A DNA stretch of 22,105 nucleotides from a virus. Taxonomy: Duplodnaviria > Heunggongvirae > Uroviricota > Caudoviricetes. Positions 1,369-20,829 of the stretch are shown one piece after another. The DNA lies in the IMG/VR virus record IMGVR_UViG_2671180609_000024. One strand, written 5' to 3'. The stretch's first letter is position 1; the number at the start of each line of letters is the position of its first letter. The notes beneath the pieces were generated by a model that did not search any database, was not told the DNA's origin, and saw only the letters and a list, made by a program, of their open reading frames with translations. The translations under genes and the position numbers were made by a program.

Positions 1369-1444
1369 GCCGATATAGCTCAGTTGGTAGAGCAGCGCAT
1401 TCGTAATGCGAAGGTCGTAGGTTCGACTCCTATTATCGGCACCA
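1369..1444 (+). tRNA. thrW: tRNA-Thr (anticodon CGU), 76 nt with encoded CCA
   Basis: GCCGATATAGCTCAGTTGGTAGAGCAGCGCATTCGTAATGCGAAGGTCGTAGGTTCGACTCCTATTATCGGCACCA; cloverleaf with anticodon loop TTCGTAA; sits immediately downstream of proA as thrW does in E. coli. Confidence 0.93.
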
Positions 1445-2727: not shown

Positions 2728-2908
2728 ATCTGTATGTTTTTTATATAGATTTATTTTTTGCAGGGTTGTGTGGCTTGGGAGGTGATCGAGAGATCAGAAT
2801 TGCGTTGTTTAGTGAGTTGCACCTATTAATTTTAAAATAAATACAATTGGTATCGATGAATTACAGTTGGTGGGCTGTTGGTGAGTAATTTTATTCAGGG
2901 TGATTTAT

Positions 2909-3352
2909 ATGGACGAATATGTTTATAGCGCAAGGCATAATGCTTTTTTCCCTGTGGATATGATTGATAAATATAAATCAGAGGGATGGGATTTATCAGA
3001 CGCTAAGGAAGTAAATCAAAATATTATCAGTGAGTTTATGGCTGAACCGCCACAAGGAAAAATCCGTATTGCCGGAGATGATGGGCTGCCTGCGTGGGCA
3101 GATATTCCTCCACCCACGCATGAAGAGCTTATTGAAATTACTGAATCAGAAAGACAGCTACTAATTAACCAGGCCAACGAATACATGAACAGTAAGCAAT
3201 GGCCCGGTAAAGCGGCTATTGGTCGTCTGAAAGGTGACGAACTGACGCAATATAATTTGTGGCTGGATTATCTGGACGCACTGGAGCTGGTCGATACTTC
3301 CGGTGCGCCAGATATTGAATGGCCTACGCCTCCGGCAGTTCAGGCCAGATGA
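2909..3352 (+). CDS. tfa: Tail fibre assembly protein (Tfa family)
   Basis: C-terminal Tfa signature LELVDTSGAPDIEWPTPP (compare lambda Tfa VDTSTAPDIEWP). Likely start is the ATG at 2909; the listed ORF begins at an upstream GTG at 2900. Confidence 0.8.
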   Translation: MDEYVYSARHNAFFPVDMIDKYKSEGWDLSDAKEVNQNIISEFMAEPPQGKIRIAGDDGLPAWADIPPPTHEELIEITESERQLLINQANEYMNSKQWPGKAAIGRLKGDELTQYNLWLDYLDALELVDTSGAPDIEWPTPPAVQAR

Positions 3353-3917
3353 CATCCGGCGCGGTGCTGGTATCTGTTGCCGTCACCGCGTCAATGTAAT
3401 CCAGCACGGCGTTAAGTCGGGTTGTTTCTGCCTGAGTCAGTTTCCGTCCGGCCTGTAACTTCAGCTGAATCAGACTAATGGAAGCCATTGCTGCATCAAT
3501 CAGTGATTGGCGCTGTGCTTCTGCCGCGTCTACTGCGGCACTGTGTTGTGCCTCAGTGTCTGTCACCCATTTCTCACCATCCCATTTATCGTATGGCGTT
3601 AACGGTGAAATCGTGACATAACCGTCTTTGATGGCACCGATATAATCCACTGTAACAGCTGCGCCATTTTCGATTGAGTAAACAGTCTCATTGCGATGGT
3701 CTTCTTCATGGCTCCATCCCTTACCTGTAAATACTGCCACTCTTCCCGGAATGTTTTCGCCAGGGTCAATACCAGTGGAACAGGCGGGCATACTTACGCC
3801 AGTATTAATATATTCATCAGACCAGCCCGTATACTCAGATGTTTCAGCATCATAATAAAAACAACGCATATCGCCCGGCACTGTAGCCAGCCCATTTTCA
3901 TCAAAAACAGGTTTCAT
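3324..3917 (-). CDS. Tail fibre assembly protein, alternative copy in inverted orientation (Tfa')
   Basis: C-terminus ...DYIDAVTATDTSTAPDVIWPELPEA carries the same Tfa signature; convergent with the plus-strand tfa, as in Mu G / P1 C / e14 P invertible segments. Confidence 0.8.
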   Translation of the reverse strand: MKPVFDENGLATVPGDMRCFYYDAETSEYTGWSDEYINTGVSMPACSTGIDPGENIPGRVAVFTGKGWSHEEDHRNETVYSIENGAAVTVDYIGAIKDGYVTISPLTPYDKWDGEKWVTDTEAQHSAAVDAAEAQRQSLIDAAMASISLIQLKLQAGRKLTQAETTRLNAVLDYIDAVTATDTSTAPDVIWPELPEA

Positions 3918-4414
3918 TATTTAGCCCTCACCAGAAAGTTAAATGCAATATTTCGCGGTCTGACTGCAACAAAATTCACACCATCACCCACAGAGTTACT
4001 GGTGAAATTAAATCGTGAAAATCCTGGCTGATTTCCGGCGATGCCATCATGAAAGTTAATTGCGTGTCCCGCACCTTCGCCTATATTCCCGGCAAACTGA
4101 GAAAAGTTTGTAGCTGCCTGCCAGCTTAATAATTCGCGACCACCGTCTGCACCTCGCCCGTCATCCCAGATACGAATGAAATCACCGCGGGCTTCAGGTA
4201 ATACCAGCGAAGGAAACACTTTCGCCAGCACAGGATAATCAGTGGCAGAGAATTTCGCGCCGTTGAACTTCAAAAACACCATACAGGACCAGCTGTCGAT
4301 TACAGTATTTGGCATTGCAGCGGACGGCCAGAAGAACGGAACGCCAATAGCTGGAGCACCTTCTCTCAAACCAACGTTTATGAAAATGCAGAAATAACGA
4401 GCAAATGGCATCAT
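3917..4414 (-). pseudogene. Tail fibre C-terminal variable-segment fragment (Stf'-like); no constant N-terminal tail-fibre part in the window
   Basis: Gly/Asn/Phe-rich ORF immediately upstream of, and coupled to, tfa' (3917 overlap); its 5' end contains the recombinase crossover-like site. By position it is the alternative variable exon of an invertible tail-fibre gene. Confidence 0.6.
4361..4386. promoter_or_regulatory. Candidate Hin/Gin/Pin-type crossover site (hix/gix/pix-like 26-mer)
   Basis: TTCTCTCAAACCAACGTTTATGAAAA matches hixL (TTCTTGAAAACCAAGGTTTTTGATAA) at about 19 of 26 positions; about 55 bp upstream of the invertase start, where crossover sites lie in known systems. Confidence 0.5.
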
Positions 4415-4440
4415 TCCTGCTTTTGTCAGGGAGATCTACC

Positions 4441-4995
4441 ATGCTTATTGGCTATGTACGTGTGTCAACAAATGACCAGAACACAGATCTACAACGTAAT
4501 GCGCTGAACTGTGCAGGATGCGAGCTGATTTTTGAAGACAAGATAAGCGGTACAAAGTCCGAAAGGCCGGGACTGAAAAAACTGCTCAGGACATTATCGG
4601 CAGGTGACACTCTGGTTGTCTGGAAACTGGATCGGCTGGGGCGCAGTATGCGGCATCTGGTCATTCTGGTTGAGGAGTTGCGCGAACGTGGCGTTAATTT
4701 TCGCAGCCTGACGGATGCTATTGATACCAGTACCCCAATGGGGCGCTTTTTCTTTCATGTGATGGGGGCCCTGGCTGAAATGGAACGAGAACTGATTGTT
4801 GAACGAACAAAAGCTGGACTGGAAGCTGCTCGCGCACAGGGACGAATTGGTGGACGTCGTCCCAAACTTACACCAGAACAATGGGCGCAGGCCGGACGAT
4901 TAATTGCAGCAGGAATTCCTCGCCAGAAGGTAGCGATCATCTATGATGTTGGTGTATCGACACTGTATAAGAAGTTTCCGGCCGGAGATAAATGA
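4441..4995 (+). CDS. pin: Serine-type DNA invertase, Pin/Hin/Gin/Cin family
   Basis: MLIGYVRVSTNDQNTDLQRNAL... resolvase/invertase catalytic domain with the active-site Ser in YVRVST, plus a C-terminal HTH. SD GGGAG 7 nt upstream of the ATG at 4441; the listed ORF begins 12 codons upstream. Confidence 0.9.
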   Translation: MLIGYVRVSTNDQNTDLQRNALNCAGCELIFEDKISGTKSERPGLKKLLRTLSAGDTLVVWKLDRLGRSMRHLVILVEELRERGVNFRSLTDAIDTSTPMGRFFFHVMGALAEMERELIVERTKAGLEAARAQGRIGGRRPKLTPEQWAQAGRLIAAGIPRQKVAIIYDVGVSTLYKKFPAGDK

Positions 4996-5052: not shown

Positions 5053-5922
<870 letters not shown>

Positions 5923-6006
5923 CTAACCCTTTGAATTTACATAGCGCAAAAAGATACCTTTCCTCATAATGTGAGCTAATTTTATGTTTCGTTTGATGAT
6001 CGGGTC

Positions 6007-6067
6007 GGTCTCGAAAACCGGAGTAGGGGCAACTCTACCGGGGGTTCAAATCCCCCTCTCTCCGCCA
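6007..6067 (+). pseudogene. 3' fragment (about 61 nt) of a tRNA-Ser gene (serU-type) - an att-site remnant, not a functional tRNA
   Basis: GGTCTCGAAAACCGGAGTAGGGGCAACTCTACCGGGGGTTCAAATCCCCCTCTCTCCGCCA matches the anticodon-arm-to-3'-end of E. coli tRNA-Ser(CGA) as I recall it; upstream sequence does not form the acceptor or D arm. Confidence 0.8.
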
Positions 6068-6649
6068 CTTTATCAATGACTTATCTCCCGACTTCCCGTC
6101 TTGCTTTTCCTAAACAGAACAATCGTAGAATATTCTTGAAGGGTTAGATCGTCACTGTTTTCTGTTCGATACTGTGACATTCAGCACTTGATTCGCTATG
6201 GATCTGACAGGAAGGTTTTGAGCGAAAATCTGCAGTTATTCAGTCGTTTTCTTATCGGTCACCATTATTCTTTTAGACATTGATCCTACAAAGCTGCCGC
6301 AAAGTTGGTGGTGGGAACTGAAGTTGCGTAGAGAAGGGGTCAATACCCGGAGGCAAACATGGGCTGGCAAAAGTGTAGCGGTATTAGGCGCAGCTATTTA
6401 GCCTAGTTATGTTTTATGAAAACTTGATATCATATAAGTGTCTTACTTATTGGCTGTAAATAAGTTTTTCCTAAGGAATTGTTTCTTGAGTATCATTTGT
6501 AACTGTAACGGAATTTATAATCCTTTGCTTTATTGTTACGGTATTTTTTATCACACCCTATTTTTAGTGGTTTTTTATACTGAAGTTTGGCAAAGTGAAC
6601 TTTATATACATATACTTCATCCTGGTTTCAGTTAAATTGGGGGGATGAT

Positions 6650-7393
6650 ATGGCAACTACATGTTCAGTTATATTGATTTTGGAGTCCTTTGATGTTTAT
6701 TTCGGAAAAGAGAGTGTGTTTCTGGAGAGAGGTTCATCTGTACTTGTCGACTCTAGCTCTAGAGATTTTTTCCTGACATATCCTGAAAGAGTGATAGTGG
6801 CGGATTTTGGCGCTGAGTTTATTAGTCGCTATTTGAAAGCTAATAACTTAAGGGATATTTCTGATTGTAGGGAATATCCATCTTATTTAAAAATAAACTT
6901 TGCTGACTTCAGTTTAATTAAAGGATTAATTAGTTGGGCTAATCACTGTGCTGAATACATAGAAATTTTTGATGAGTCTATTGCTTTTACATGTCTCTCT
7001 GCATTTTCTTCTGAAAAACAATTTGGAGTATTTCTGTTTGGATGTTTGAAAAGCACAGGGGCTAAAGTTAAAACGATTATTCATACGGATTTATCTGCAC
7101 CATGGCGTCTTAAGGATATATCATCAAGATTATATCTCAGCGAAAGTTTACTAAAGAGGAAATTGAAAGAAGAGGGGGTATCATTCAGTAAGATCATACT
7201 TGATGAGAGGATGCAAATGGCTGAATATTTACTCAGCACTCGTTGTTATCCTATTAGTAAAGTAGCTAAGGTCTGTGGTTATGCCAGTGTCTCATACTTT
7301 ACTTATGTATTTAGACGTTATTTTGGTGTTTCTCCAAGTCAATACTCTCAGAGGAGTTCAGAAAGTAAAATTCTTACTCACCAGGGAATCTGA
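6650..7393 (+). CDS. AraC/XylS-family transcriptional regulator (AppY/GadX/Rns-like)
   Basis: C-terminal dual-HTH AraC domain (WRLKDISSRLYLSESLLKRKLKEEGVSFSKIILDERMQMAEYLL ... VCGYASVSYFTYVFRRYFGVSPSQY) aligns by eye to AppY. Very AT-rich gene with a long AT-rich leader; SD GGGGGATGA before the ATG. Confidence 0.85.
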   Translation: MATTCSVILILESFDVYFGKESVFLERGSSVLVDSSSRDFFLTYPERVIVADFGAEFISRYLKANNLRDISDCREYPSYLKINFADFSLIKGLISWANHCAEYIEIFDESIAFTCLSAFSSEKQFGVFLFGCLKSTGAKVKTIIHTDLSAPWRLKDISSRLYLSESLLKRKLKEEGVSFSKIILDERMQMAEYLLSTRCYPISKVAKVCGYASVSYFTYVFRRYFGVSPSQYSQRSSESKILTHQGI

Positions 7394-7395
7394 TC

Positions 7396-7872
7396 ATTGT
7401 TCTTGCCCCCTTATTTCCAGACAGGGGGGGTATCTTAAGTTAACGTTACCCGCTGACGTCGATATTCTCGCGGAGAGCGATAACCCAACGCACTGTGCGG
7501 ATGGTTTTCATTGTAATGTTCGATCGCCACTGCAAGATTATGCAATGCCGTTCTTACATTCGGTTTCGGCATGAACGCGATGTAGTCTTCCTTCATCGTT
7601 TTCACGAACCTTTCTGCAATTCCATTACTCTGAGGACTGCTGATTGCCGTTGTGCAGGGCTCCAGATTCAACTCTCTGGCGAACTGCCGTGTTTCATGCG
7701 CTCTATACGCTGAACCGTTATCTGTCAGCCACTGGATGGACTGTTCCGGTACTTTATCGCCAAAGCGTTTTTCTATCGCTCCTAACATGACATCCTGCAC
7801 TGTCGCTTTATCGTAACCTCCCGTGCTTGCGGCCCAGTCTATGGCTTCACGATCGCAACAGTCCAGGGCGAT
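7396..7872 (-). mobile_element. IS2-like (IS3-family) element remnant: 3' part of the orfB transposase plus a terminal inverted repeat; 5' truncated
   Basis: Translation ...[38 protein letters not shown]...[18 protein letters not shown] matches the IS2 InsD C-terminal region as I recall it. Terminal sequence around 7396-7420 (revcomp CCCCCCCTGTCTGGAAATAAGGGGGCAAG) resembles an IS2 end. In-frame stop at 7873-7875. Confidence 0.8.
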
Positions 7873-8147
7873 TCATCTGGGCCAATCCTTGCTCATAACA
7901 GGCATTCACTTCAGTCATGGCAGAAAGGTATGCATGCTGGAGAAGTCGTGAAAGAAAAGAAGACTGCTGCGCCGTTTGTCGTCACGTTTATCTTCATTGG
8001 CTATGCAAGTCGTAATACAAGGTGGGACAAAACTGAGACACATAAGGCCTCGCAATGGCTTGCAAGGCTTTACATGTTTTGATGTGGTGGGACGTGTGAG
8101 CGCAGTGTTGATGGGGTAATGCTTTGAATTAGAAGCGGATTCTTATA

Positions 8148-8193
8148 ATTCGTAATGCGAAGGTCGTAGGTTCGACTCCTATTATCGGCACCA
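8148..8193 (+). repeat. Direct repeat of the tRNA-Thr 3' end (46 bp, exact): att junction between element 1 and the P4-like element
   Basis: ATTCGTAATGCGAAGGTCGTAGGTTCGACTCCTATTATCGGCACCA is identical to positions 1399-1444 of the full tRNA gene. Confidence 0.9.
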
Positions 8194-8355
8194 TCTCAAC
8201 TTCCTCAAACGTCCGTATTAGTCCATAAAATCTCTGATTTATAACATTTTTTATTCTTTTAAGTCCATAGTAGTCCGTAACCATCCAGTAGAATCCGGTA
8301 CTGAATGTGTATAGGATTGTGTATATGTTCCTGTTCGGTCTGGATTCCTATACAC

Positions 8356-9537
8356 ATGCCTTTAAACGATATGCAGATTCGCCGCGCTAAGCCTGAAGCT
8401 AAAGCCTATACATTTGGAGATGGGCTAGGGTTGTCATTACTTATAGAACCTAATGGAAGCAAGAGTTGGCGGTTCCGCTATCGCTATGCCGGCAAACCCA
8501 AAATGATCTCGCTTGGTGTTTACCCAACGATCACCCTTGCCGATGCTCGTTCCCGTCGTGATGAAGCTCGAAAACTTGTGGCAGAAGGAAAGAACCCTAG
8601 TGAGGTTCGAAAAGAGCAAAAGCTAGCTATGCAAACAGAGTCAGAGAACGCCTTCGAAAAGATAGCCAGAGAGTGGCATCAACTTAAATCTGCTAAATGG
8701 TCGGCGGGATATGCATCAGACATCATGGAAGCGTTTAAGAACGACATTTTTCCTTATGTCGGAACAAGGCCTGTGGGAGAGATTAAACCGCTAGAGCTGC
8801 TGAACGTTCTGCGTAAAATTGAGAAACGTGGTGCGTTGGAGAAAATGCGCAAAGTGCGGCAGCGTTGCTCCGAAGTGTTTCGCTACGCAATTGCAACGGG
8901 TAGGGCGGAGTACAATCCTGCGGCTGATCTCTCCAGCGCTCTCGAAGTACACCAATCCAATCATTTCCCATTCCTAAAAGCTGATGAGATACCTGATTTT
9001 CTACGTGCCTTAGAGGGTTACTCCGGGAGTAAGCTTGTCCAGATAGCCACGAAATTACTGATGATTACGGGTGTGAGAACCATCGAATTACGCGCGGCAT
9101 TATGGCAAGAATTTGATCTGGATAACGCTATTTGGGAAATTCCTGCTGAAAGGATGAAAATGCGTAGGCCACATCTTGTGCCCTTATCATCTCAAGCGGT
9201 AGATTTACTCAATGAACTCAAGATCATGACAGGGAACTATCGTTATGTTTTTCCAGGGCGGAACGATCCGAATAGGCCAATGAGCGAAGCGAGTATAAAT
9301 CAAGCCATTAAGCGTATTGGGTATGGAGGAAAAGTCACTGGACATGGTTTTCGTCATACCCTTTCTACAATCCTGCATGAGCAAGGTTTTGAGAGTGCTT
9401 GGATTGAAATCCAGTTGGCTCATGTAGATAAAAATTCTATTAGGGGGACTTATAACCATGCTCAATATTTTAGTGGAAGGAAGTCTATGATGGACTGGTA
9501 CAGTAATTTGATATTTGAAAGACTAAAAAGGAGTTAA
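8356..9537 (+). CDS. int: P4-type tyrosine integrase (N-terminal arm-binding domain + catalytic domain)
   Basis: N-terminus MPLNDMQIRRAKPEAKAYTFGDGLGLSLLIEPNGSKSWRFRYRY is the classic P4/CP4-type integrase start; C-terminal HGFRHT ... Y catalytic motifs. Immediately follows the tRNA-derived repeat and reads away from it. Confidence 0.92.
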   Translation: MPLNDMQIRRAKPEAKAYTFGDGLGLSLLIEPNGSKSWRFRYRYAGKPKMISLGVYPTITLADARSRRDEARKLVAEGKNPSEVRKEQKLAMQTESENAFEKIAREWHQLKSAKWSAGYASDIMEAFKNDIFPYVGTRPVGEIKPLELLNVLRKIEKRGALEKMRKVRQRCSEVFRYAIATGRAEYNPAADLSSALEVHQSNHFPFLKADEIPDFLRALEGYSGSKLVQIATKLLMITGVRTIELRAALWQEFDLDNAIWEIPAERMKMRRPHLVPLSSQAVDLLNELKIMTGNYRYVFPGRNDPNRPMSEASINQAIKRIGYGGKVTGHGFRHTLSTILHEQGFESAWIEIQLAHVDKNSIRGTYNHAQYFSGRKSMMDWYSNLIFERLKRS

Positions 9538-9540
9538 TTT

Positions 9541-9957
9541 GTGTCTCAACCACTTTCGGAAATATTGACATGGGATGATGAACAATGGGAGGTATTTGTC
9601 CATGATTGGCTTATTGTCTGTAAATCAGATGATTACCCGTGGAGCGAACGTTTGGGAGGAGCTGGAGATAAAGGTAGAGACGTTGTTGGATATAAATCGG
9701 ATCCTAACGTAGAAGGTTATTCTTGGGATAATTATCAATGCAAACTGTACAAAAAAAGTTTAGGGTTCTCTGATGTTGTAGTTGAGTTTGGAAAACTTAT
9801 CTATTTTACTCTGAATGGTGATTATCCCATCCCTCAGAAGTACTTTTTTGTGGCACCCTATGATTTATCTACTACATTTTCTAATTTATTGAAAAATAAA
9901 AACGAGCTTAAAAAAGCAGTCCTTGATTCATGGGATTCAGCAATTTCAAAAAAATAA
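9541..9957 (+). CDS. Cargo gene 1: small protein with a PD-(D/E)xK (Mrr-like) nuclease motif; possibly the N-terminal part of a longer protein (see findings)
   Basis: GTG start 7 nt after SD AAGGAG and 3 nt after the int stop. Motifs GGAGDKGRDVVGY and, about 20 aa later, YQCKLYKK (D ... QxK) look like a restriction-endonuclease-like core. Very AT-rich. Confidence 0.6.
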   Translation: MSQPLSEILTWDDEQWEVFVHDWLIVCKSDDYPWSERLGGAGDKGRDVVGYKSDPNVEGYSWDNYQCKLYKKSLGFSDVVVEFGKLIYFTLNGDYPIPQKYFFVAPYDLSTTFSNLLKNKNELKKAVLDSWDSAISKK

Positions 9958-10547
9958 CTAAAAAGATTGATATTCCATTAGATGATGAAATAAAAAAATA
10001 TATTGAGGATTTTGATTTTAGTATTTTTTACTCTCTACCCTTATCATTGATTTTAAATGATATTGCAAATACACACCTTTATTTTAAGTACTTTAACGAG
10101 CTGTATGTCGTGAGAATCCCTCCAAATGAAATTCCAACATACAATTCAAAAAAAGAGTCTGTATATGTTAATGCACTGCTTCAAGCCTATTCAGAGCATG
10201 GAAATAAAACTTATAGTTCTTTCTTAGAGCTTGATGATCCATACAGACGACACTTTAATAATAGTAGAAATGATTTTTATTTTGCATCTTCGCTTGAGGT
10301 TTTTGTCCGCGAAGTATTTAAAGATGATGTATTCAAAGCATTGAAATGTTACATTTCATCTTCAATTGAACCCGTCTTTTATGAAGACCATAATTATGCA
10401 TTTATTAGGTGTAATGCAGTCTTGAAGCAGGCTGTTCTGACACCAATTGCACATTCAGTACTATCAAAAATATGTGAAGCAAATGATAAAAAAGGAATAT
10501 GCCATCATTTGGTTAATGATGGTGAAGTAATTTGGACGGTGAGATAA
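9930..10547 (+). CDS. Cargo gene 2: hypothetical protein (205 aa as listed); may be the C-terminal part of gene 1 joined by a shift in an A7 run
   Basis: ORF overlaps gene 1 by 28 nt in another frame; both frames pass through the A7 homopolymer at 9948-9954. No domain recognised by eye. Confidence 0.5.
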   Translation: MGFSNFKKITKKIDIPLDDEIKKYIEDFDFSIFYSLPLSLILNDIANTHLYFKYFNELYVVRIPPNEIPTYNSKKESVYVNALLQAYSEHGNKTYSSFLELDDPYRRHFNNSRNDFYFASSLEVFVREVFKDDVFKALKCYISSSIEPVFYEDHNYAFIRCNAVLKQAVLTPIAHSVLSKICEANDKKGICHHLVNDGEVIWTVR

Positions 10548-11005
10548 TGGTTAGAATTTATAATTCAAGTTTAGAAGTGGCATGTCGAATGGCGAAAGTG
10601 CTCGTCGCTATTTATCCTTCTTCATTAAGCCTTGAACGGCTTATTTGTTTTGATTTTATTTTAGTAAATCTTAAGGATTTTTTACCTGAAGAGATTAGTC
10701 TTCATCCTCCAATACCCCGTAGAGATGCTCAGTTAGCCCTAAAACGAGAGATTGTTTTAGAATCATTGGCTTTGTTGCAAGGCTATGAACTAGCCTCAAA
10801 AATTTATACACATCGTGGTTTTGTATATAAAGCTTCTGAAAAAACATATGCATTTACAAATTCTCTACATAATGAATATGTTGCGCAGATGGAGCATAAT
10901 ATAAATTTGGTGGTTAAGTTATATAGTGATATTCCTGATGAGCAGTTGCAATCAATTATAAAAAATAAAATTGGCAAATATGATATGGAATTTAATTATG
11001 AATGA
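10547..11005 (+). CDS. Cargo gene 3: hypothetical protein (about 152 aa)
   Basis: ATG overlaps the gene-2 stop (TAATG at 10545-10549); its stop overlaps the next gene's start. Same AT-rich composition. Confidence 0.55.
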   Translation: MVRIYNSSLEVACRMAKVLVAIYPSSLSLERLICFDFILVNLKDFLPEEISLHPPIPRRDAQLALKREIVLESLALLQGYELASKIYTHRGFVYKASEKTYAFTNSLHNEYVAQMEHNINLVVKLYSDIPDEQLQSIIKNKIGKYDMEFNYE

Positions 11006-11630
11006 CAATTTTTTTACGTTCAGAAAAATAAAGGTAACCGGATTCAATAAATTAGATGCTATAATTGAATTTGGTTCTAAATTGACTATTTTATATGGTG
11101 GTTCTGACTCTGGAAAAACATACATATATTATTTGATTCGATATTTATTAGGGAGTGAAAAACTAAAAAATAAAGATATCGATCATGCTCAAGGTTATGA
11201 TTTAGCCTATCTGGAATTTAATTTTCAAGGTAGGGTAATGACAATTGAGAGGTCTCTTCAGGATAGCGCCCATTACAGATTATATGATTCGAGCATTGAA
11301 AATGTTAGTGAAGCTAATCTGTTGATGGTTTTTTCCAAAAGTGCTTCGTCTAAAAAGAGTTTTTCATCATACTTTTATGGTAGGTTGAATTTCAAAGAGG
11401 CTAAAGTAAGAACAAACTTAAGTAATACTCTTCATAAATTTAATCTTAATAATGTTTTTGAATTTTTTTGTATTGATGAATTAAGAGTGTTAACTGAGAA
11501 GTCGTTAATTCTTTCTGATATTCCTAGCGAGGAGACAAAAAGAAAGTCTGAATTTAAATTCCTTTTAACTCAGAGAGATGATACTAACTCCTTAGCAGAA
11601 AAACCAAATAAAAAAGCAAGATATTTTTAA
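10998..11630 (+). CDS. Cargo gene 4: N-terminal head of an SMC/Rad50/RecN-like ABC ATPase (Walker A)
   Basis: FRKIKVTGFNKLDAIIEFGSKLTILYGGSDSGKTYIYYLIRYLLG is the canonical SMC-like N-terminal strand-loop-Walker A arrangement (GxxxxGKT). The ORF ends at a TAA inside a T5/A7 tract and the next ORF continues in the same frame. Confidence 0.65.
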   Translation: MNDNFFTFRKIKVTGFNKLDAIIEFGSKLTILYGGSDSGKTYIYYLIRYLLGSEKLKNKDIDHAQGYDLAYLEFNFQGRVMTIERSLQDSAHYRLYDSSIENVSEANLLMVFSKSASSKKSFSSYFYGRLNFKEAKVRTNLSNTLHKFNLNNVFEFFCIDELRVLTEKSLILSDIPSEETKRKSEFKFLLTQRDDTNSLAEKPNKKARYF

Positions 11631-11660
11631 AAAAATCAAATTGCAAATATTTATGAGGAA

Positions 11661-12251
11661 TTGAAAGCGCAATTAATTTATCCTGAATATGATCAAGTCA
11701 TTGTTTCAAGAGAACTTGAGAAAGTAGAGCAAGATATTGAATCATCGAAAGATATATTGAAAGGTATTGTTGATGCACTTGATGATAAGAAGCAATTATT
11801 AAAAGAGTTAAGTGATGAATTATATTCAATCAGTGACAGGGAAAAATACTTATCATTACTCATTGAAAGATTTAGTCTTCTTAAAGACCAATACTTTATA
11901 GATCTACAAAGAATAGATGTTGTATCACAGGCGAATTTCTATTTAAATAATTTTGCAGATATTTATTGTGAGTTCTGTAATACACCGCAAAAAAAAGAAA
12001 ATGAAATATCATATGATGATTGTTTTTTGTCGTGTAATGCAGAAAAATTGAAAATCAAAAGCCAGCTGAAAGGATTAATTGAATCAATCGGATCTAATGT
12101 TCGCGAACATGAATTAATTATGTTAAGAAAAAATGATGTTAATGAAATTTATCAATCAGAAAAAAGTGATTTTAAGACGTTAGAAGATAAAAATATAAAA
12201 CAATACATTCATCTCTTGAATCACTTTATGAATATAAAGACAATCTTTTAA
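11661..12251 (+). CDS. Cargo gene 5: coiled-coil segment of the SMC/Rad50-like ATPase with a Cys4 cluster (CxxC-x14-CxxxC); probably not independently translated
   Basis: Heptad-rich sequence (EKVEQDIESSKDILKGIVDALDDKKQLLKELSDELYSI...), cysteines in YCEFCNTPQ...DDCFLSCN. Same frame as gene 4, separated by a single TAA; the listed start is a TTG with no convincing SD. Confidence 0.5.
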   Translation: MKAQLIYPEYDQVIVSRELEKVEQDIESSKDILKGIVDALDDKKQLLKELSDELYSISDREKYLSLLIERFSLLKDQYFIDLQRIDVVSQANFYLNNFADIYCEFCNTPQKKENEISYDDCFLSCNAEKLKIKSQLKGLIESIGSNVREHELIMLRKNDVNEIYQSEKSDFKTLEDKNIKQYIHLLNHFMNIKTIF

Positions 12252-12817
12252 TGGATCACACAAAACATAGCATTCTATCTTCATTACAAGATAAAGAAGA
12301 TGATGTTGACGAACTTAAATACTCCGCCGAGGACTTTGACTCCTTAACAGTAGCTGATTTGTATGATATAGAAATAGCGATGCAAGACTTTTTGAATGAT
12401 ATAAATTTTGAAAATTCTAAAGATAACAAAGTGCGATTTGACGAAGATACATATGACTTTAATATCAATGGGAAACGCCGAGGAATGTTTGGTAAAGGTA
12501 CCCGTGCAGTAATGCATGCTATATTTACCATTTGCTTTGCGGAATTTTTATCAAGAAAAGGGAATCCATTCATTGGATTTGTTGTGCTTGATAGTCCATT
12601 AGTGACGCACTTTGATAAAGATAGAGGGGGTTCTCTATCGGATGTTAATAGCGTCAGTCTCAGTGATTCATTTTATCACGCATTAATCAAAAGGGACTAT
12701 AATTTCCAGATTGTAATTCTTGAGAATAAAGGTCCGACGTTCCAAATAAAAATTAATGATGCAAATAAAATCCATAACTTAAATAAGAATGGAAGCTCTG
12801 GTTTTTATCCTGTTTAA
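12251..12817 (+). CDS. Cargo gene 6: C-terminal head of the SMC/Rad50-like ABC ATPase (signature-like region, Walker B/D-loop, H-loop)
   Basis: FGKGTRAVMHAIFTICFAEFL followed by PFIGFVVLDSPLVTHFD (hydrophobic strand + D, Walker B-like) and a downstream His (FYHAL). ATG overlaps the gene-5 stop (TAATG). Confidence 0.6.
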   Translation: MDHTKHSILSSLQDKEDDVDELKYSAEDFDSLTVADLYDIEIAMQDFLNDINFENSKDNKVRFDEDTYDFNINGKRRGMFGKGTRAVMHAIFTICFAEFLSRKGNPFIGFVVLDSPLVTHFDKDRGGSLSDVNSVSLSDSFYHALIKRDYNFQIVILENKGPTFQIKINDANKIHNLNKNGSSGFYPV

Positions 12818-13175
12818 TACATTAAAAATATAACTGCTAATTGGGGTGCTCGAAATTATATTTCGTTTCGAGCGCTCAGTTCATTTCTAAATAATTTGCA
12901 AAATTATTTTGGGTACTTTCGCCTCTACACTTCCTTCGGGTGGTTCCACAATAATGGATCTCACCGGCGTTTGATATTTTATAATCTAACCCCTTAGCGC
13001 GCGCAGCCCCCCACGCCTGCTCGCTTCGCTTAACAGACTGGTTTTCATGCATTCCGCAAATCGTCTCAGAAGCCACCACACAAGGGCTTTCGCGTCAAAA
13101 ATGGTGCATGAGAATCATGCGTTTTCATGCGCTATAGACATGCACTCATGCGCTCTCAGGCCAGCCAGGGAAAAG

Positions 13176-13215
13176 GCGTAAAAAATCCCAGTACTGGACC
13201 GGGATTACGTGGGCT
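13176..13215 (-). terminator. Rho-independent terminator for the minus-strand sid-psu-delta operon (possibly bidirectional)
   Basis: Stem AATCCC (13184-13189) / GGGATT (13201-13206), flanked by an A-run on one side and a T-run on the other; on the minus strand the hairpin is followed directly by TTTTTT. Lies just 3' of the Ogr/Delta-like gene. Confidence 0.6.
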
Positions 13216-13226
13216 TTTTTTGCTAA

Positions 13227-13499
13227 TCAGACAGGAATTTGCTGACGGCTTGACAGCTTTGACGCGGAGCCATAGCGATTGAGAGTTTGCTGTTGTTTTT
13301 CCGGCATTTGTGCTTTCTCTGATTCCTGTTCATTGCGCCGGGGCTTCATGATTATCGTATCCACACTTTCCAGTGCGGTAAATGTGTAGGAACATTCAAG
13401 ATTCTGGCACTGATACCATGAGCGTTTAACCGATGGTGCTTCATAGGCGGAGGTTCTGGCGTGTGCCGTCGTACCGCATTCGGGACATTTAAGTGCCAT
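13227..13499 (-). CDS. Ogr/Delta-family zinc-finger late-gene activator (single-domain, 90 aa)
   Basis: MALKCPECGTTAHARTSAYEAPSVKRSWYQCQNLECSYTFTALESVDTIIMKP aligns by eye with P2 Ogr (CPxC..AHARTS ... QCQN.xCS.TF..ESV). Confidence 0.85.
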   Translation of the reverse strand: MALKCPECGTTAHARTSAYEAPSVKRSWYQCQNLECSYTFTALESVDTIIMKPRRNEQESEKAQMPEKQQQTLNRYGSASKLSSRQQIPV

Positions 13500-13504
13500 T
13501 AATA

Positions 13505-14056
13505 TTACTCCTGCATGCCGTTAATGTAATCCAGACGTTGCTGAAAGCGCAGTTGTTGTGCAGGGGTGTAAGAGCTCTGGCAATCACGAACCATCATGGG
13601 GTCAGGCATCACACCGGATTCATCCAGAATCATACGATAATCCCCGGCAATTTCAGGCGGTGTTATTGCCAGCTGGCGAACCAGAGCATTGCGTAATATA
13701 CGGGACGCAACGTCAACCCCTCCGCGCCCCTTCAGGAACGGAGCCAGTGCAGATGTCAGGGCTGCTCCATTCGCCTGCATAAAATTGCTGAGAGCGTCTT
13801 CTGTGCAGGCCTCCATCAGTTGATGCTGCGAGTAAATGCATTCGCGCGCAGCACAGTTAATTTGCCATTTCAGCACATCCAGATGTTCCCGCTGTAATTC
13901 GAGCTGTCGAGCATAATCTGCTGGTTTTTCCATGGCAGTGAGGAGTGATTCTATCTGTTGTTCAACGGCTTTTCGGCTCTCACTATGTCCAGCCCACAGA
14001 ATACGGGCATTTCTAAAACTGATAAGCGCTTGGTCTGGAGTGACTCGGGCCATCAT
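13505..14056 (-). CDS. psu: Psu-like polarity suppression / capsid decoration protein
   Basis: Segment LDVLKWQINCAARECIYSQHQ ... LSNFMQANGAALTSALAPFLKG ... TPAQQ resembles P4 Psu as I recall it (KWQ.N.AA ... FMQ.HG.AL..ALAP.L.G ... TPAQ). Size 183 aa against 190 aa. Confidence 0.7.
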   Translation of the reverse strand: MMARVTPDQALISFRNARILWAGHSESRKAVEQQIESLLTAMEKPADYARQLELQREHLDVLKWQINCAARECIYSQHQLMEACTEDALSNFMQANGAALTSALAPFLKGRGGVDVASRILRNALVRQLAITPPEIAGDYRMILDESGVMPDPMMVRDCQSSYTPAQQLRFQQRLDYINGMQE

Positions 14057-14805
14057 ACTGCTTTCTCCTTCTCAGCACGTTCCTGACGAACCTTCATTTT
14101 ATGCATAGCTGCTGGAGAGAGTTTATTACTGAAATCCAGACGGGCCGCATAATCCGGGGCAACTCCCGCCAGTTTAAACACGGGGTCCTGTTCGGGCATC
14201 GCATCGTTAGTCAGAGCCGGTCTGGTGATATGTTTATGAATAAAATCTTTCAGCAGTGTGTCCGGGTCATTAACTGAATGCACCACACCGACAACTGCGC
14301 TGGCTTCCCTGCCCATTGTTGATTTGAGCAGGCTTAGTGTCTGGATTAGTGCTTTTCCATGCGACTGCATAAAATCTTCCCAGATTTGTTTTGCGCGAAT
14401 ACCCACAAGGGTGTCGTGCGCGTGGATATACTTTCCGGCTAATTCCGCAGCCTCCTGCGGCAAAAGTGCATTTTCGCTTTCCTGAGCCGCCAGCAGCTCA
14501 TCAAAATCCTCAAGCGTTTCTCGTCCCAGCGCAATTTCCGTGCGCAGTTTTTTCATTTCCTTTGAGACTACGCCCTGACTTTCACGAAATAGCGTGCGCC
14601 ACTCCTCATTCAGGGCGTTCGTCGTGGCTTCCATTTCAGCGCGGCGCTGGCGGATTGTCGCAATATTATCCGCTGCCGCTTTTTGCTGACGACGTGCTTC
14701 AAGCCATGCAGATTTGGTGGCATTCACTTTCTCAAGCGCCTGTTGCGTCGAAACAGGGATAGAAATTTCAACGATCGGGTTATTGTTCTGTTCTGGGATT
14801 GTCAT
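14053..14805 (-). CDS. sid: Probable Sid-like external scaffold (capsid size determination) protein
   Basis: 250-aa alpha-helical, Ala/Glu/Gln-rich protein, first gene of the minus-strand operon and overlapping psu by 4 nt; size and position match P4 Sid (244 aa). Called by context, not by a recognised motif. Confidence 0.5.
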   Translation of the reverse strand: MTIPEQNNNPIVEISIPVSTQQALEKVNATKSAWLEARRQQKAAADNIATIRQRRAEMEATTNALNEEWRTLFRESQGVVSKEMKKLRTEIALGRETLEDFDELLAAQESENALLPQEAAELAGKYIHAHDTLVGIRAKQIWEDFMQSHGKALIQTLSLLKSTMGREASAVVGVVHSVNDPDTLLKDFIHKHITRPALTNDAMPEQDPVFKLAGVAPDYAARLDFSNKLSPAAMHKMKVRQERAEKEKAV

Positions 14806-14971
14806 GTCAGCACCTAGTGGTTTGTCGTGGTGTCAATTGTGCTGTGATGCATACAAAGCTGCCATTGAACGCCATTGTGCGAGCGACAAGACAAAGACTG
14901 AACCGCCCCGGACCTCTTTTGGCTAGCCAGAAAAGGCCTCGTTTAACTAAGGCTGTTTCAGACTTACCTTA

Positions 14972-15187
14972 ACTATTCACTACTATTCACTTAGGTAAAA
15001 AAAATAGGTAATACAGAAGGTTATAAGGTGAAGGGTTGGCATGGCAGTATTCATCGACTGTTCATAACTGTTCACATGGGAATAAAATTATTTATGGTAT
15101 TTTTTCATAATGGGTGGTTTTTTTATTCCTCGTAGCTATTTGTTTTTTGCTCCTCACCACTATTCACCCTTATTCAGGAGTATTCAA
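14972..15187. repeat. Cluster of about 8 direct iteron-like repeats, T(A/G)TTCA(C/T) (P4 type-I-iteron-like TGTTCACC variants), in the divergent intergenic region
   Basis: ACTATTCACT ACTATTCACT (tandem, 14972-14991), AGTATTCAT (15047), TGTTCAT (15059), TGTTCAC (15069), TATTCACC (15161), TATTCAG (15171), TATTCAA (15181), all in the same orientation. Confidence 0.6.
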
Positions 15188-15738
15188 CAGGCACATAAAT
15201 AGACTGCATGTTTTTGCCGGGGAATAACATTTTCGCCTCTGGCCATGGTGTTGCATTTCATACTGATTTTTATAAAACTAGATCTGTCCGGTTCTTTATG
15301 GATTCATTCGGATATATTTTACGATTTAAGGTGATGTTATTTAATATCAAGGTTTTTATGCAGGCCCAATGTTTATAAGTTGGATGCGATTCAAAAATAT
15401 GCCCGGAAATTGGGGCCTGCAATGCAAGGCCTCGTGTAGAAGTTGTACTGCCTTGCTGTATTGGCGGTGGGGTTAGCACTATCAGGTGCAATGACCCATA
15501 GGATAGTAAACCCTGGGTGAATGGTAGTTCCTATTAATGCTCCTGTATTTATAGTCCGCAGGCATGGTATTTATTATGTCATTTTATATGGTTTAATCGG
15601 GCTTTAAATTCCATAAAATCAATATGTGACGCTAAATAAAAAATGCGTGCGCAGGTGGTTTATATACACATAATAAGGAACTACCTGAACCCGGATAAAT
15701 TCATCCGGACTGTTGTGGAAATTAAAGAGGGTAGATAA

Positions 15739-15999
15739 ATGCGTAATATTTCTGTGTCTGCGCCAGCTCCTGCTGCGCCATTATTTCCTGTATCGAACCA
15801 TCATGAGCGATTTTTACGCCTGCCTGAGGTGATGCACTTATGCGGGTTGTCCCGTTCGACCGTTTACGACCTGATCAGCCGCGATGCGTTTCCGAAGCAG
15901 ATCCCGCTTGGCGGTAAAAATGTCGCCTGGGCACAGTCTGAGGTCAGCGCATGGATGGCGGACCGCATCAGCGCCCGTGGGCGGGGATGTGATGCATGA
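15739..15999 (+). CDS. AlpA/Vis-family small DNA-binding regulator (excisionase-like HTH)
   Basis: [48 protein letters not shown] matches the AlpA/Vis HTH pattern. SD AGAGGG 7 nt before the ATG. Confidence 0.8.
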
Positions 16000-16549
16000 T
16001 GATACCTGCATACATTAAATACCTTTATTCTGGCTTGCTTACTGTCGTCATTTCCAGGTATAGTTTTTCCGCTGTCGCAAAATCGGCAGCCGGAATTGGC
16101 GTTCCGTATAACTTATTGGCGACAATTGACGCCCCTTGCGTCTTTTTTTACGTCGTAGCTCAGGCACAACCATTTTCAGGGCTGTGGTGTTTATGCTTAC
16201 ACCATGGTTCTATCGAGATAATGGTAGTCCGGGCGGGGCAGCCTTCGGGCTGGCCGGTTTCCAATAAGGCCGGTTACGCCAACCCCGTTCGGGCTGCCAC
16301 CAGTGAAATTGGCGTTTCCGGTGGTAGCAATAACCGCTACTTATTGGAGGCTGCCATCATGGCTACAATCCTCACCCCGTCACACCCGCAATATGTCTTT
16401 GTGTTTGCCGCAATCCGCCGTGCTGACACTCACCCCCGCATCTGTATGCTTCGCACTGTCTCCTGCGATGAGCGTTCCGCGCGCCGTTTGCTAGTCCGAG
16501 ATTATGTACTCTCCCTTTCTGCACGGCTGCCTGCCGGGGAGGTGACGCT

Positions 16550-16771
16550 ATGAACCAGTTTGAGATTTCCTACGACGATGTTGTAAGGCTGAAACATTTA
16601 CGCAATGTGGGTGAGTATGTAACTGGCATGGCAGCCCTGCAGGACTGTTATGAAAAGCCAGCAGGTGCCCAATGCGAACAACTGGTTTCCCTCATTTATC
16701 TGATGACAGAGCAACTGGATGGAGTGGTGCAACGCTGCCATGACGACCTGATGAATGCGGAGGTGGCCTGA
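16550..16771 (+). CDS. Hypothetical small protein of the P4-like early operon (73 aa)
   Basis: SD GGGAGGTGA 4 nt before the ATG; ATGA-type overlap with the next ORF; same operon as alpha. Function unknown (positional analogue of P4 epsilon/orf151). Confidence 0.55.
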
Positions 16772-17094
16772 TGATATGCTGTGAATCTCTTCTGGCACTT
16801 CGTGCCGCTCTGTATCGCCGTGCCGTTGCCTGTGCCTGGCTGGCTCTAAGCAATCATCAGGAACGTTATTCCGGCCTGACGCTCGCTGAACTTGAAGATG
16901 CCATAGCCCGCGAGCTGGAAGGGTTCTATCTGCGCCAGCATGGGCAGCAAAGAGGGCTGGAAATTGCCTGCGCGTTGCTTTCGGATCTGATGGAGTCGGG
17001 GCCGCTTAAAGCCTGTCCGGTTCTCTCACTGCTCGGAATGACGGTCATGGATGAACTTTGTTCCCGTCACCTCAACAAACCAGCGCTGCACTAA
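16771..17094 (+). CDS. Hypothetical protein of the P4-like early operon (107 aa)
   Basis: SD GGAGGTGG upstream; start overlaps the previous stop; ends 13 nt before the alpha start. Confidence 0.55.
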
Positions 17095-17107
17095 GGAGGG
17101 CCGCACA

Positions 17108-19441: not shown

Positions 19442-19448
19442 CTGACCT

Positions 19449-19469
19449 AAGACCGGCTGTGCCGGTCTT
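19449..19469. terminator. Perfect palindrome / hairpin (AAGACCGG ... CCGGTCTT) between the convergent alpha and cargo genes; no U-tract
   Basis: AAGACCGGCTGTGCCGGTCTT forms an 8-9 bp stem, 8 nt after the alpha stop. No flanking T-run on either strand, so terminator function is uncertain; it could be a protein-binding palindrome. Confidence 0.35.
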
Positions 19470-19573
19470 AAATCCGCTACAGGAAATTATCTCAAAATAT
19501 ATATCGATAAAATTTAAAAGTTATATGCTAAGGCGTCAGCGGAAAATGCATCTAATTCATTGTTAGATGATGT

Positions 19574-20530
19574 TTATTTTTGAATTGATTTAAACATCCC
19601 ATCGAGTTGTAATTTATTTATGTCGGTTTTCTTTATGGCTTTAATTAAGTTTTCAATAACTTCCAAAGAAAAAATTACATCTTTCTTTTCAATTCTAACC
19701 CCCCCGTGGTGGCTGCAAGCATTAAGGATGTCCTTTGTAATTTCAACATCATTTTTCATTAATGGTTCATAGTCCAGAGCCTCAATAACAGAAACTAAAC
19801 TACCTAGCATTTGCTCTTGGTATTGAACGTTGTTTAAATGCATTATACGAATATTAACAAGCATGAGAATATATTCTAAATATCTCCTGGCAGTATTTCC
19901 TTTCTCTTGTAAAGAATCACGATCATATTCCTCAATACTCATGACTTCATTATGTAAAGAGGCTATTTTGTGCTCTGCTAATGAAATATTTATCGCATCC
20001 ATGAGGTTTCGTGAGAAGCCTGTAGATGTAACATGACCATTTGCGGGCCTTGTTAAAATACATGTAGTATAGCAATTTATATTTGGGGTCTGGATTGTCT
20101 CATTTACTCTTTTAACCGTTCTATAAACGTCTACCATATAAGAACCTGAGTTTTCAAATGAACATGAAGAGCATTTTGTATTATATATTCTATTTAGAGA
20201 TAACTGATTGTGATAGTATCCCTTTAAGAAAGCATATATAGTGTCATTAAACTCGACAAACACAACGGACTCAATATATATATGGAATTTATCATTGGGG
20301 TGCCACTCTAATTCAAGTCTTCTTGTAGAGTCATCAAAGGAAAAGTTTGAAATAAAATCCCAGTTACCTAAATCTATAAAATCAACGATATTTCTACCTG
20401 CACCATGGATATTTTTATTTATTAAAGTTGTGATTGAGTTTTTTATAATGTCCCAATCATGAATTTCATGATCGAATTTATTATTGATGGTTTCTTTTAT
20501 TTGATTGGAAAAGTTTGAATAACTAGTCAC
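19574..20530 (-). CDS. Orphan AT-rich cargo gene, hypothetical protein (318 aa), between alpha and the distal att remnant
   Basis: Long ORF with a GTG start preceded by a GAGG SD; strongly AT-rich, Asn/Ile/Lys-rich composition unlike the flanking P4-like genes. No domain recognised by eye. Confidence 0.6.
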   Translation of the reverse strand: MTSYSNFSNQIKETINNKFDHEIHDWDIIKNSITTLINKNIHGAGRNIVDFIDLGNWDFISNFSFDDSTRRLELEWHPNDKFHIYIESVVFVEFNDTIYAFLKGYYHNQLSLNRIYNTKCSSCSFENSGSYMVDVYRTVKRVNETIQTPNINCYTTCILTRPANGHVTSTGFSRNLMDAINISLAEHKIASLHNEVMSIEEYDRDSLQEKGNTARRYLEYILMLVNIRIMHLNNVQYQEQMLGSLVSVIEALDYEPLMKNDVEITKDILNACSHHGGVRIEKKDVIFSLEVIENLIKAIKKTDINKLQLDGMFKSIQK

Positions 20531-20829
20531 TTGTTAGCCTCAAAATTAATAATGAGTATTAAAATTTAATTGATATTGTCTATAAAATGTAGCGATGCAA
20601 TTTTATTGCAACGAAATGATTTTTACAACATACCATTATCGCTAAACAAAATCGCACCCATCAAATCAACTTACGTTACAATCACTACAAAGCGATTGCA
20701 TTTAAATTCAAAACAGTTTTCTGTTGGGCGCATTTTTTGTTGTACTGGACTAAAGAGAAAAAATGGGGTAAGGAACAAATACCTTCCGTGCTCAAAAATT
20801 AGGTTTTTATGCACTTATTAATCAGTCAA

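Follow-up and report, generated by a model that had tools for sequence, protein, structure and literature searches.

The 22,105 nucleotides of DNA analysed here (the window) are the thrW region of E. coli O157:H7, that is OI-8, in which the P4-like element Sp2 comes after prophage Sp1/CP-933H. Within Sp1/CP-933H lies an open reading frame on the forward strand that encodes a 247-residue AraC-family protein and has neither a frameshift nor a truncation, damage that the initial annotation had considered possible. The gene is patE, next to a pinE invertase gene and a tail-fibre module in the window, and the features around it are collected in Table 1. The duplicate of the thrW 3' end to the right of patE repeats positions 1399-1444, which fall within an intact tRNA-Thr gene, and in the Sakai annotation Sp1 ends and Sp2 starts at this duplicate. 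The prophage itself is degraded, its integrase gene being partial and its replication gene frameshifted.

Table 1. Features in and around the patE region of the window
Feature	Coordinates	Strand	Basis
Fossil host DNA: 3' part of the tRNA-Ser gene serU (anticodon stem to CCA, ~62 nt) and 278 bp of its native downstream flank	6005-6345	+	sequence identity
AT-rich upstream region, ~30% GC, probably regulatory	6346-6586	+	composition, alignment
Predicted patE promoter: −35 TTGGCA (6587-6592), 18-nt spacer, −10 TATACT (6611-6616)	6587-6616	+	consensus scan, conservation
Shine-Dalgarno sequence GGGGGGA, 4-5 nt before the ATG of patE	6639-6645	+	read from sequence
patE (Z0321 / ECs_0287) CDS, AraC/XylS-family activator	6650-7393	+	open reading frame, Pfam, identity to EDL933/Sakai
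Partial ISEc48 (IS3 family, IS2-like): 3' end of transposase gene and IS terminus	7398-7867	−	Pfam, Sakai annotation, IS2 identity
Duplicate of thrW 3' end: right attachment site of Sp1/CP-933H, bounds the patE-carrying element	8148-8193	+	direct repeat, Sakai annotation

The encoded protein is 100% identical to WP_000246059.1, which is ECs_0287 of Sakai and its counterpart in EDL933. In EDL933 it is encoded at 309101-309844, between thrW and the duplicated thrW 3' end, and in Sakai it sits inside a feature annotated 'prophage Sp1, lambda-like phage'; the thrW prophages of both strains hold only this one AraC-family gene. In the literature z0321 on OI-8 encodes PatE (PMC10877973, citing Bender et al. 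2012), Z0321 appears in a list as 'putative regulator (prophage CP-933H), O-Island 8', the tail-fibre genes of CP-933H are Z0314 and Z0316, and a putative regulator, z0342, lies at about 324.0 kb. At its right end the window has a LysR gene that matches z0342, and so the gene order agrees with the Z numbering. It is position in OI-8/CP-933H, uniqueness there and gene order, rather than a match of locus tags, that identify the open reading frame as Z0321 and hence as patE. Set beside the PatE of EDL933 CP-933H/OI-8 (Bender et al. 2012, cited in PMC10877973) the protein is identical, and island, neighbours and family match. The locus is thus that of an already characterised prophage-carried AraC-type regulator of host acid resistance, a finding that is real but ordinary.

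Positions 6380-7420 are 100% identical across hundreds of O157:H7 genomes, and 658 of 5426 complete E. coli genomes have the open reading frame intact, at 98-100% conservation, as do viable phages. The marked AT-richness that the initial annotation saw in the gene and its upstream DNA holds locally: the coding sequence has 35.2% GC (27% at third codon positions) and the 200 bp upstream 30.5%, against 42-50% in the flanks (44.6% for 5878-6379, 49.3% for the IS remnant) and 43.9% for the whole window. The average for the E. coli genome is about 50.5% GC, and the AT content of patE and its upstream DNA is well above that of the host. More extreme stretches exist in the window, however, since the cargo of the P4-like element (about 9.5-12.8 kb) has only 26-28% GC, and so 21% of 744-nt windows equal or exceed patE in AT content.

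Upstream region and candidate promoter

The gene had initially been given a start at 6438 and a long leader, and neither is borne out. Position 6438 is the GTG of a 65-residue open reading frame (6438-6635) in a frame other than that of patE, which starts at its own ATG; this short frame was rejected as a gene, having no Pfam match and being broken by seven gap columns relative to the locus of an 84%-identical homologue. The only conserved promoter-like site lies close to the gene. It matches the consensus at 10 of 12 positions, and a transcription start predicted from it near 6623 would put about 27 nt of 5'UTR before the gene. The block around it (6571-6625) is 87% identical to the locus of the 84% homologue, against 68% further upstream, and five loci that encode proteins of only 47-84% identity to PatE all keep a C-x-TATACTT motif unchanged. 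The site is likely to be the patE promoter in use. It carries A at −13; sigma-S promoters typically have C there. The GG-GGATGATATG of the Shine-Dalgarno region is likewise kept in homologous loci.

Judged by sequence, the AT-rich stretch is more likely an untranscribed region than a long leader. Homology to the locus of the 84% homologue starts near 6405 (68% identity onward, 47% before), and by this alignment the share of the upstream region that belongs to the conserved patE cassette runs only from about 6405. A search of 5800-8400 with Rfam gave no riboswitch or small RNA in the supposed leader, only sub-threshold tRNA-like matches to the serU fragment. On the other side of the gene no terminator follows patE in the window, because the ISEc48 remnant begins 4 nt after the stop codon and, compared with the homologous locus, has taken the place of the 3' flank; at the locus of the 84% homologue the gene is followed by a stem-loop and then a T-run.

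The PatE protein and its relatives

[quoted passage not shown] Both Pfam models lie above their cut-offs (HTH_AraC at 60.7 bits against 26.6, E 1.3e-16; HTH_18 over residues 158-235 at 58.4 bits against 33.6), and the protein divides into an N-terminal companion domain (about residues 1-135) and the DNA-binding domain (about 138-235). Among solved structures that of the GadX DNA-binding domain (3mkl, E 3e-24) matches best, with 43-44% identity to the domain of PatE, followed by CsvR, Rns and ToxT. The model of the DNA-binding domain has a pLDDT of 85-95 and superposes on the GadX domain with a TM score of 0.87-0.90 and an rmsd of 1.7 Å, as well as on the MarA, AraC and SoxS domains. In the N-terminal part the model has beta strands at 4-54 with a low-to-moderate pLDDT of 35-70; a reading of this domain as a ligand pocket was dropped, as the confident model covers the DNA-binding domain only. 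The C-terminal domain binds DNA, and the N-terminal domain presumably serves dimerisation or signal sensing.

The initial annotation had likened the C-terminal domain to AppY, GadX and Rns. The likeness stands, and homology to YdeO, GadW and AppY spans the whole protein. BLASTP gives full-length matches to YdeO (35%, 4e-48), GadW (33%, 1e-46) and AppY (28%, 2e-35), with alignments running from residue 1 of PatE to about residue 236 and residues 1-135 pairing with the N-terminal domains of all three, and a match to GadX of 35% over the C-terminal 160 amino acids. YdeO and GadW are thus the nearest K-12 proteins at full length, and the closest homologues are not sugar regulators; AraC, RhaR and XylR match PatE through the DNA-binding domain only, at 34-54 bits, and so a housekeeping sugar regulator was rejected. 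The top NCBIfam model is YdeO, over residues 1-235, and PatE misses the equivalog cut-offs both for it (148 bits against 348) and for GadX (110 bits against 500). By these sequence comparisons PatE is placed as a distinct paralogue within the YdeO/GadW/AppY subgroup, an orthologue of neither YdeO, GadW nor GadX. A scan of species-representative genomes with the single PatE sequence, a method that reaches close relatives only, confirmed no relative.

YdeO (b1499) is colinear with PatE over residues 1-242 of 253 at 35% identity, and the two have in common an N-terminal MxxVCSVI motif and the same DNA-binding domain. In E. coli K-12 YdeO is an EvgA-controlled AraC-type activator of gadE, with ydeO under EvgAS control. 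The ydeO gene is chromosomal and adjoins safA, whereas patE is phage-borne and dependent on RpoS and stationary phase; both proteins feed into gadE and the acid fitness island (literature including PMC10877973). GadW (b3515) and GadX (b3516) have target genes in common with PatE (literature including PMC10877973), but unlike PatE they are encoded within their own target island, the acid fitness island, and the N-terminal domain of GadX does not align with that of PatE. AppY (b0564) of the K-12 cryptic prophage DLP12 resembles patE in its placing, as a prophage moron after tail-fibre assembly genes at the prophage end, and according to a review it too activates gadE and AR2 genes. In sequence it is more distant from PatE than YdeO or GadW, and for its further roles, the control of hya, app and biofilm genes and the stabilisation of RpoS, the reviews gave no counterpart report on PatE.

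The prophage AraC-like proteins PsrA and PsrB (EDL933 OI-50 and OI-57) reportedly raise gadE and bind the hdeA promoter in the −132 to −45 region that PatE also uses (PMC10877973). WP_000301797.1, a 237-residue HTH protein from the slot between Q and the holin gene of the OI-57 prophage, shares 37% identity with PatE at full length and is probably PsrB; its modest identity and its different prophage slot set it apart from PatE. When PsrA was sought, the OI-50 region of resequenced EDL933 gave no annotated AraC gene and no tblastn match to PatE, and a 171-residue hypothetical protein of OI-50 proved unrelated. Abundant 243-residue relatives that are 53% identical to PatE were also rejected as PsrA or PsrB, not being O157 genes.

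The patE cassette and its carriage by phages

The mobile unit that contains patE is a fixed cassette (6005-7871), with the serU fossil and its 278 bp of flank at its start. Nearly all E. coli have a native serU locus to which the fossil is 96-97% identical; ARAGORN found no intact tRNA gene in it, and with Rfam it gives a weak match to the tRNA clan. At the other end, the IS2-like remnant that had been noted beside the gene is confirmed as a partial ISEc48: the Sakai annotation calls it 'ISEc48 Family: IS3 partial', the open reading frame at 7435-7800 has the Pfam domains rve_3 and rve, and the remnant is about 71% identical, in nucleotides as in amino acids, to the C-terminal 140 amino acids of IS2 OrfB.

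The cassette is found in the viable lambdoid phages ev099, mEp332 and PhiR70_1, and in ev099 it occupies the b region, between a tail-fibre assembly gene and int. At a protein identity of at least 98%, patE is present in 4 of 50,697 phage records, which come to three distinct phages, ev099 having been deposited twice. The backbones that carry it vary: in O157 and ECE228 the tail module is e14/Mu-like, and ev099 and NC19 have lambda-like tail fibres. Relatives of PatE at 47-84% identity lie between the Q antiterminator and holin genes of lambdoid prophages. patE is a moron in the sense that it lies between phage functional modules and is absent from related phages.

The 3' part of serU followed by its native downstream flank at the start of the cassette has the structure of a right prophage-host junction. 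A chimeric query that joined mtfA, serU and its flank to the 5' half of patE was covered to at least 80% by none of 5426 genomes, and so in none of them does patE stand beside an intact native serU. Its present, fixed place is the b region of viable lambdoid phages with integration sites other than serU. Tentatively, it may be the fossil of a capture of the specialised-transduction type, in which aberrant excision of a serU-integrating phage took patE from or next to serU and recombination among lambdoid phages later spread it, though we regard this as less probable than not. Alternatively patE may have come from the Q-to-holin slot of another phage and landed beside an older serU fossil.

PatE and the acid fitness island

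That the gene is a horizontally acquired regulator of the acid-resistance or virulence class, with targets outside its island, had been proposed from the sequence, and the published work on patE agrees on both counts. PatE activates gadB, gadC, gadE and hdeAB, for which it uses a cis-element between −132 and −45 in the hdeA promoter, and it down-regulates six LEE genes; a patE null mutant is reported to have lower gad and hde expression (PMC10877973), and further reviews concur. All these targets are located far outside the island. Z0321 shows 6-fold RpoS dependence in stationary phase with a high wild-type microarray signal (log2 12.4), and ECs0287 is induced at the transition to stationary phase. 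Our literature search for PatE together with H-NS found nothing on patE, and the stationary-phase expression argues against complete silencing by H-NS; the gene is not simply silent.

Overall patE is best explained, with a probability of roughly 0.93, as a phage-borne, RpoS-dependent activator of acid-resistance genes, its regulon, binding at hdeA and RpoS dependence being drawn from the literature. As a part of this explanation, and held with equally high confidence, patE is an intact, probably self-promoted moron at the tail-fibre and attachment-site end of the lambdoid prophage remnant Sp1/CP-933H at thrW. The gene would be transcribed chiefly as cells enter stationary phase, in dependence on RpoS and likely from the TTGGCA-18-TATACT site. 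PatE would then act in trans on the chromosomal acid fitness island by binding the hdeA promoter, and would raise gadE, gadBC and hdeAB for better survival of acid, and LEE and type III secretion genes would be lowered either directly or through GadE.

The composition of the locus (30-35% GC in patE and its upstream DNA), the degraded state of the host prophage and the IS remnant that replaced the 3' flank could suggest that patE is H-NS-silenced cargo, decaying and functionally inert. The expression data contradict this reading, which is largely refuted and very unlikely: Z0321 gives its strong RpoS-dependent signal in stationary phase, ECs0287 is induced on the way into it, the null mutant has a reported effect on gad and hde (PMC10877973), and the reading frame is intact and conserved both in hundreds of genomes and in viable phages. 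It seems equally improbable that PatE is an activator of the Rns/CsvR/ToxT type, serving chiefly an operon for fimbriae or an adhesin, perhaps under the control of fatty acids, and not acid resistance. CsvR, Rns and ToxT are significant sequence matches (E about 1e-16 to 1e-13) as well as the top full-length fold matches to the PatE model, and PatE is reported to alter LEE expression (PMC10877973). Yet the fold matches reach a TM score of 0.40 only, with an rmsd of about 17 Å, identity to Rns and CsvR is 17-22% as against the 33-35% at full length for YdeO and GadW, no fimbrial or adhesin operon adjoins patE in any context examined, and the reported effect on LEE is repression, not activation (PMC10877973).

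The neighbouring pinE invertase and tail-fibre module, with the placing of PatE relatives in the Q-to-holin slot, would also fit a regulator directed at the phage itself, at the invertible tail-fibre segment or late genes, with the host effects as artefacts of overexpression. However the cassette occurs on differing backbones with differing neighbours, and so patE is tied to no phage target; in K-12 the related YdeO, GadW and AppY each target the acid fitness island (review), and it is a null mutant, and not overexpression alone, that is reported to change gad and hde expression (PMC10877973). A phage-directed role is hence scarcely credible, and the activator of host acid-resistance genes is the reading preferred here.

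PatE is among several AraC regulators, AppY and PsrB being others, that are encoded by phages and feed into the acid fitness island of E. coli. Regulators of this kind are considered part of the reason why O157:H7 infects at a low dose. Its function is established work, and this class of regulator is recognisable from sequence alone. What is added here is a candidate promoter with a −10 element that does not vary within the phage-borne PatE-like family, a placing of PatE nearer to YdeO and GadW than to the Rns-type virulence regulators, and the view of patE as a fixed cassette with a fossil serU junction. The presence of that cassette in viable lambdoid phages makes the regulator transferable to new strains by lysogeny, and the capture at serU, if true, would be a traceable example of the birth of a regulatory moron.

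Identity and family of the regulator

The AraC-type ORF is securely the already characterised patE (Z0321), on the basis of its island, its uniqueness there and the gene order. The AraC-like gene on OI-8/CP-933H has been named z0321 or patE (PMC10877973), and the Z0321 entry reads 'putative regulator (prophage CP-933H), O-Island 8'. The encoded protein is WP_000246059.1; in EDL933 no other gene of the AraC family lies between thrW and the thrW repeat, and the Sakai counterpart is ECs_0287. The CP-933H tail-fibre genes Z0314 and Z0316 lie a few genes upstream of patE in the window.

Bender et al. are said to have found in 2012 that acid survival goes up when PatE expression is raised. In a patE null mutant the expression of gadB, gadC, gadE and hdeAB is reduced (PMC10877973; further reviews agree), and the reported target is a cis-element in the hdeA promoter, located at −132 to −45, with negative regulation of six LEE genes also reported (PMC10877973). 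Because of these reported gad/hde and LEE effects, the initial annotation was right to propose an acid-resistance or virulence regulator with targets outside the island. A literature search found no H-NS findings on patE.

Both AraC-family Pfam models score well over their cut-offs across residues 158-235, as expected of the AraC-family gene first called here. Model scores, pairwise identities and structure matches taken together make PatE a paralogue in its own right among the acid-resistance regulators of the YdeO/GadW/AppY group. The best NCBIfam model is YdeO (residues 1-235, 148 bits against an equivalog cut-off of 348), and identity over the full length is 35% to YdeO, 33% to GadW and 28% to AppY, with 35% to GadX over the C-terminal 160 residues only. 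An N-terminal M-x-x-(V/T)-C-S-V-I motif is common to the relatives compared, GadX and EnvY excepted. The solved structure that matches best is the GadX DNA-binding domain (E 3e-24), followed by CsvR, Rns and ToxT at about 1e-16 to 1e-13, in line with the C-terminal domain having been described as AppY/GadX/Rns-like; the Rns/ToxT virulence regulators are more distant kin. An AlphaFold model built with 11 homologues as input is confident in the DNA-binding domain only (pLDDT 85-95), which overlays that of GadX at 1.7 Å, and the N-terminal half is modelled as beta strands at pLDDT 35-70, too uncertain for pocket claims. Housekeeping sugar regulators are not the closest kin, the YdeO/GadW/AppY group being nearest, and likeness of PatE to sugar regulators is confined to the shared DNA-binding domain.

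Promoter, composition and the IS neighbour

A consensus scan of the plus strand upstream of patE gives one sigma-70-type site, TTGGCA-18-TATACT at 6587-6616. Five loci encoding proteins with 47-84% identity to PatE have just two upstream blocks that never vary, a −10 motif of the form C-x-TATACTT and the ribosome-binding region GG-GGATGATATG; these, with the identity of the promoter block to the locus of the 84% identical homologue (Table), support a predicted transcription start near 6623, which would leave about 27 nt of 5'UTR. In that case the AT-rich DNA beyond the promoter, first described as a long leader, is more likely an untranscribed stretch with a regulatory role. A −10 of the TATACT type agrees with the 6-fold dependence on RpoS reported for Z0321 and with ECs0287 being induced at the transition to stationary phase; in patE itself, however, position −13 is an A where sigma-S promoters typically have C.

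GC content is 35.2% in the patE CDS (27% at third codon positions) and 30.5% in the 200 bp upstream, compared with 44.6% in the left flank (5878-6379) and 49.3% in the IS remnant to the right. The gene had been called far more AT-rich than its surroundings, and the local contrast is real, but other parts of the window go further than patE: the cargo of the P4-like element goes down to 26-28% GC, and 21% of stretches of patE length are at least as AT-rich. Hundreds of E. coli O157:H7 chromosomes carry 6380-7420 at 100% identity. The gene had been started at 6438, but the GTG there opens a 65-aa ORF in a different frame; that ORF has no family match and is disrupted by 7 gap columns against the homologous locus. 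The IS2-like label was fair, because the ISEc48 remnant is 71% identical to IS2. Its terminus lies 4 nt past the patE stop codon, and so the native 3' flank has been lost; in the 84% homologue this flank contains a stem-loop and then a T-run.

Features of the patE region; percentages are nucleotide identities of the patE locus to the locus of the 84% identical homologue
Feature	Position	Strand	Remarks
thrW, tRNA-Thr(CGT), intact	1369-1444		tRNA gene search
Invertible tail-fibre module, e14/Mu/P2-type	2900-4995		opposed tail-fibre and tail-fibre-assembly ORFs beside invertase
Tail-fibre/assembly ORFs of the module	2900-3352; 3324-3917; 3917-4414	+; -; -	
Pin/Gin-family serine invertase	4405-4995		Resolvase E 1e-51
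LEM-3-like GIY-YIG nuclease-domain gene, 274 aa	5053-5877	-	between invertase gene and serU fossil
serU fossil	6005-6345		copy of host DNA: tRNA-Ser serU from the anticodon stem through CCA (3' part) with 278 bp of native downstream flank
Further upstream	6346-6404		47%, chance level
Distal upstream	6405-6570		68%
Promoter block	6571-6625		87%
patE ORF, 247 aa	6650-7393	+	
patE CDS, compared segment	6650-7381		86%
3' of patE stop codon			identity lost
Partial ISEc48, IS3 family	7398-7867	-	Sakai annotation
Repeat of thrW 3' 46 nt	8148-8193		repeat search of window
P4-like satellite prophage Sp2	8194-21079		tandem behind Sp1 at thrW
Sp2 integrase	8305-9537		
Degenerate thrW 3' repeat, about 20 nt	about 21061-21079		repeat search of window
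AraC-like HTH gene of EDL933, 237 aa	L020:35275-35988 = EDL933 1905274-1905987		OI-57 prophage, Q-to-holin slot

The thrW island and the serU fossil

The thrW 3' end is present three times in the window and the copies delimit two tandem elements, with 22 of the 24 nt directly after the first and third copies alike. The Sakai annotation calls thrW to the first repeat 'prophage Sp1, lambda-like phage' and what comes after it 'prophage Sp2, P4-like phage'; the same arrangement in EDL933, at 300-323 kb, is O-island 8, with prophage CP-933H. Beyond the island, at about 324 kb, comes z0342, a putative regulator gene belonging to OI-9, to which the LysR-family ORF at the window's right end corresponds. 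Besides its integrase, Sp2 encodes a primase and has ogr/delta, psu and sid-like genes. For its very AT-rich cargo block (about 9541-12817, 26-28% GC), a candidate anti-phage defence hotspot, NCBI annotation gives an ABC-three-component system together with an AAA ATPase. In Sp1, the tail-fibre and tail-fibre-assembly protein accessions of TR01 and EDL933 are unlike, and a repeat search with the default seed reported no crossover-site inverted repeat for the invertible module. The LEM-3-like gene is intact in EDL933 and ECE228 and annotated as truncated in TR01.

The serU fossil is 96-97% identical to the serU locus in nearly every E. coli. With patE and the IS remnant it makes up a cassette (6005-7871) whose left boundary is constant across contexts: in strain NC19 it lies in a lambdoid prophage at the bio/ybhB site, in ECE228 in a prophage adjoining pao genes, and it recurs at 99% identity in the isolated phages ev099 (b region, between a tail-fibre assembly gene and the integrase gene), mEp332 (after the tail-assembly gene) and PhiR70_1. 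In none of the complete E. coli genomes does patE adjoin a native serU that is intact. Phage DNA, tRNA 3' part and native flank follow one another as they do at a right prophage-host junction, and the cassette has the look of a remnant left when a phage excised aberrantly from serU. Equally possible is an intra-phage origin of patE beside an older serU fossil, because the more distant PatE relatives (84%, 55%, 53% and 47% identity) all lie between the Q antiterminator and holin genes of lambdoid prophages.

Phage-borne relatives of PatE

That slot is the stx position in Stx phages. The PatE-like proteins there, sampled at four lambdoid prophage loci of other E. coli (L011, L014, L015 and L016), are 237-244 aa long and 47-84% identical to PatE and have thousands of database members, and their loci share the invariant C-x-TATACTT −10 element; no characterised member was seen among them. 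EDL933 itself carries a relative in OI-57, with a full-length identity of 37% to PatE and flanked by a Q-like antiterminator and tRNA-Ile/tRNA-Arg genes, which is probably PsrB. Reviews place PsrA (z1789) in OI-50; in resequenced EDL933 the OI-50 region has no PatE-like sequence and the slot of its prophage equivalent to that of OI-57 is without an AraC-like gene. With patE itself already characterised, the interest left lies in the promoter element conserved across the family and in the cassette with its serU fossil, present in viable lambdoid phages.
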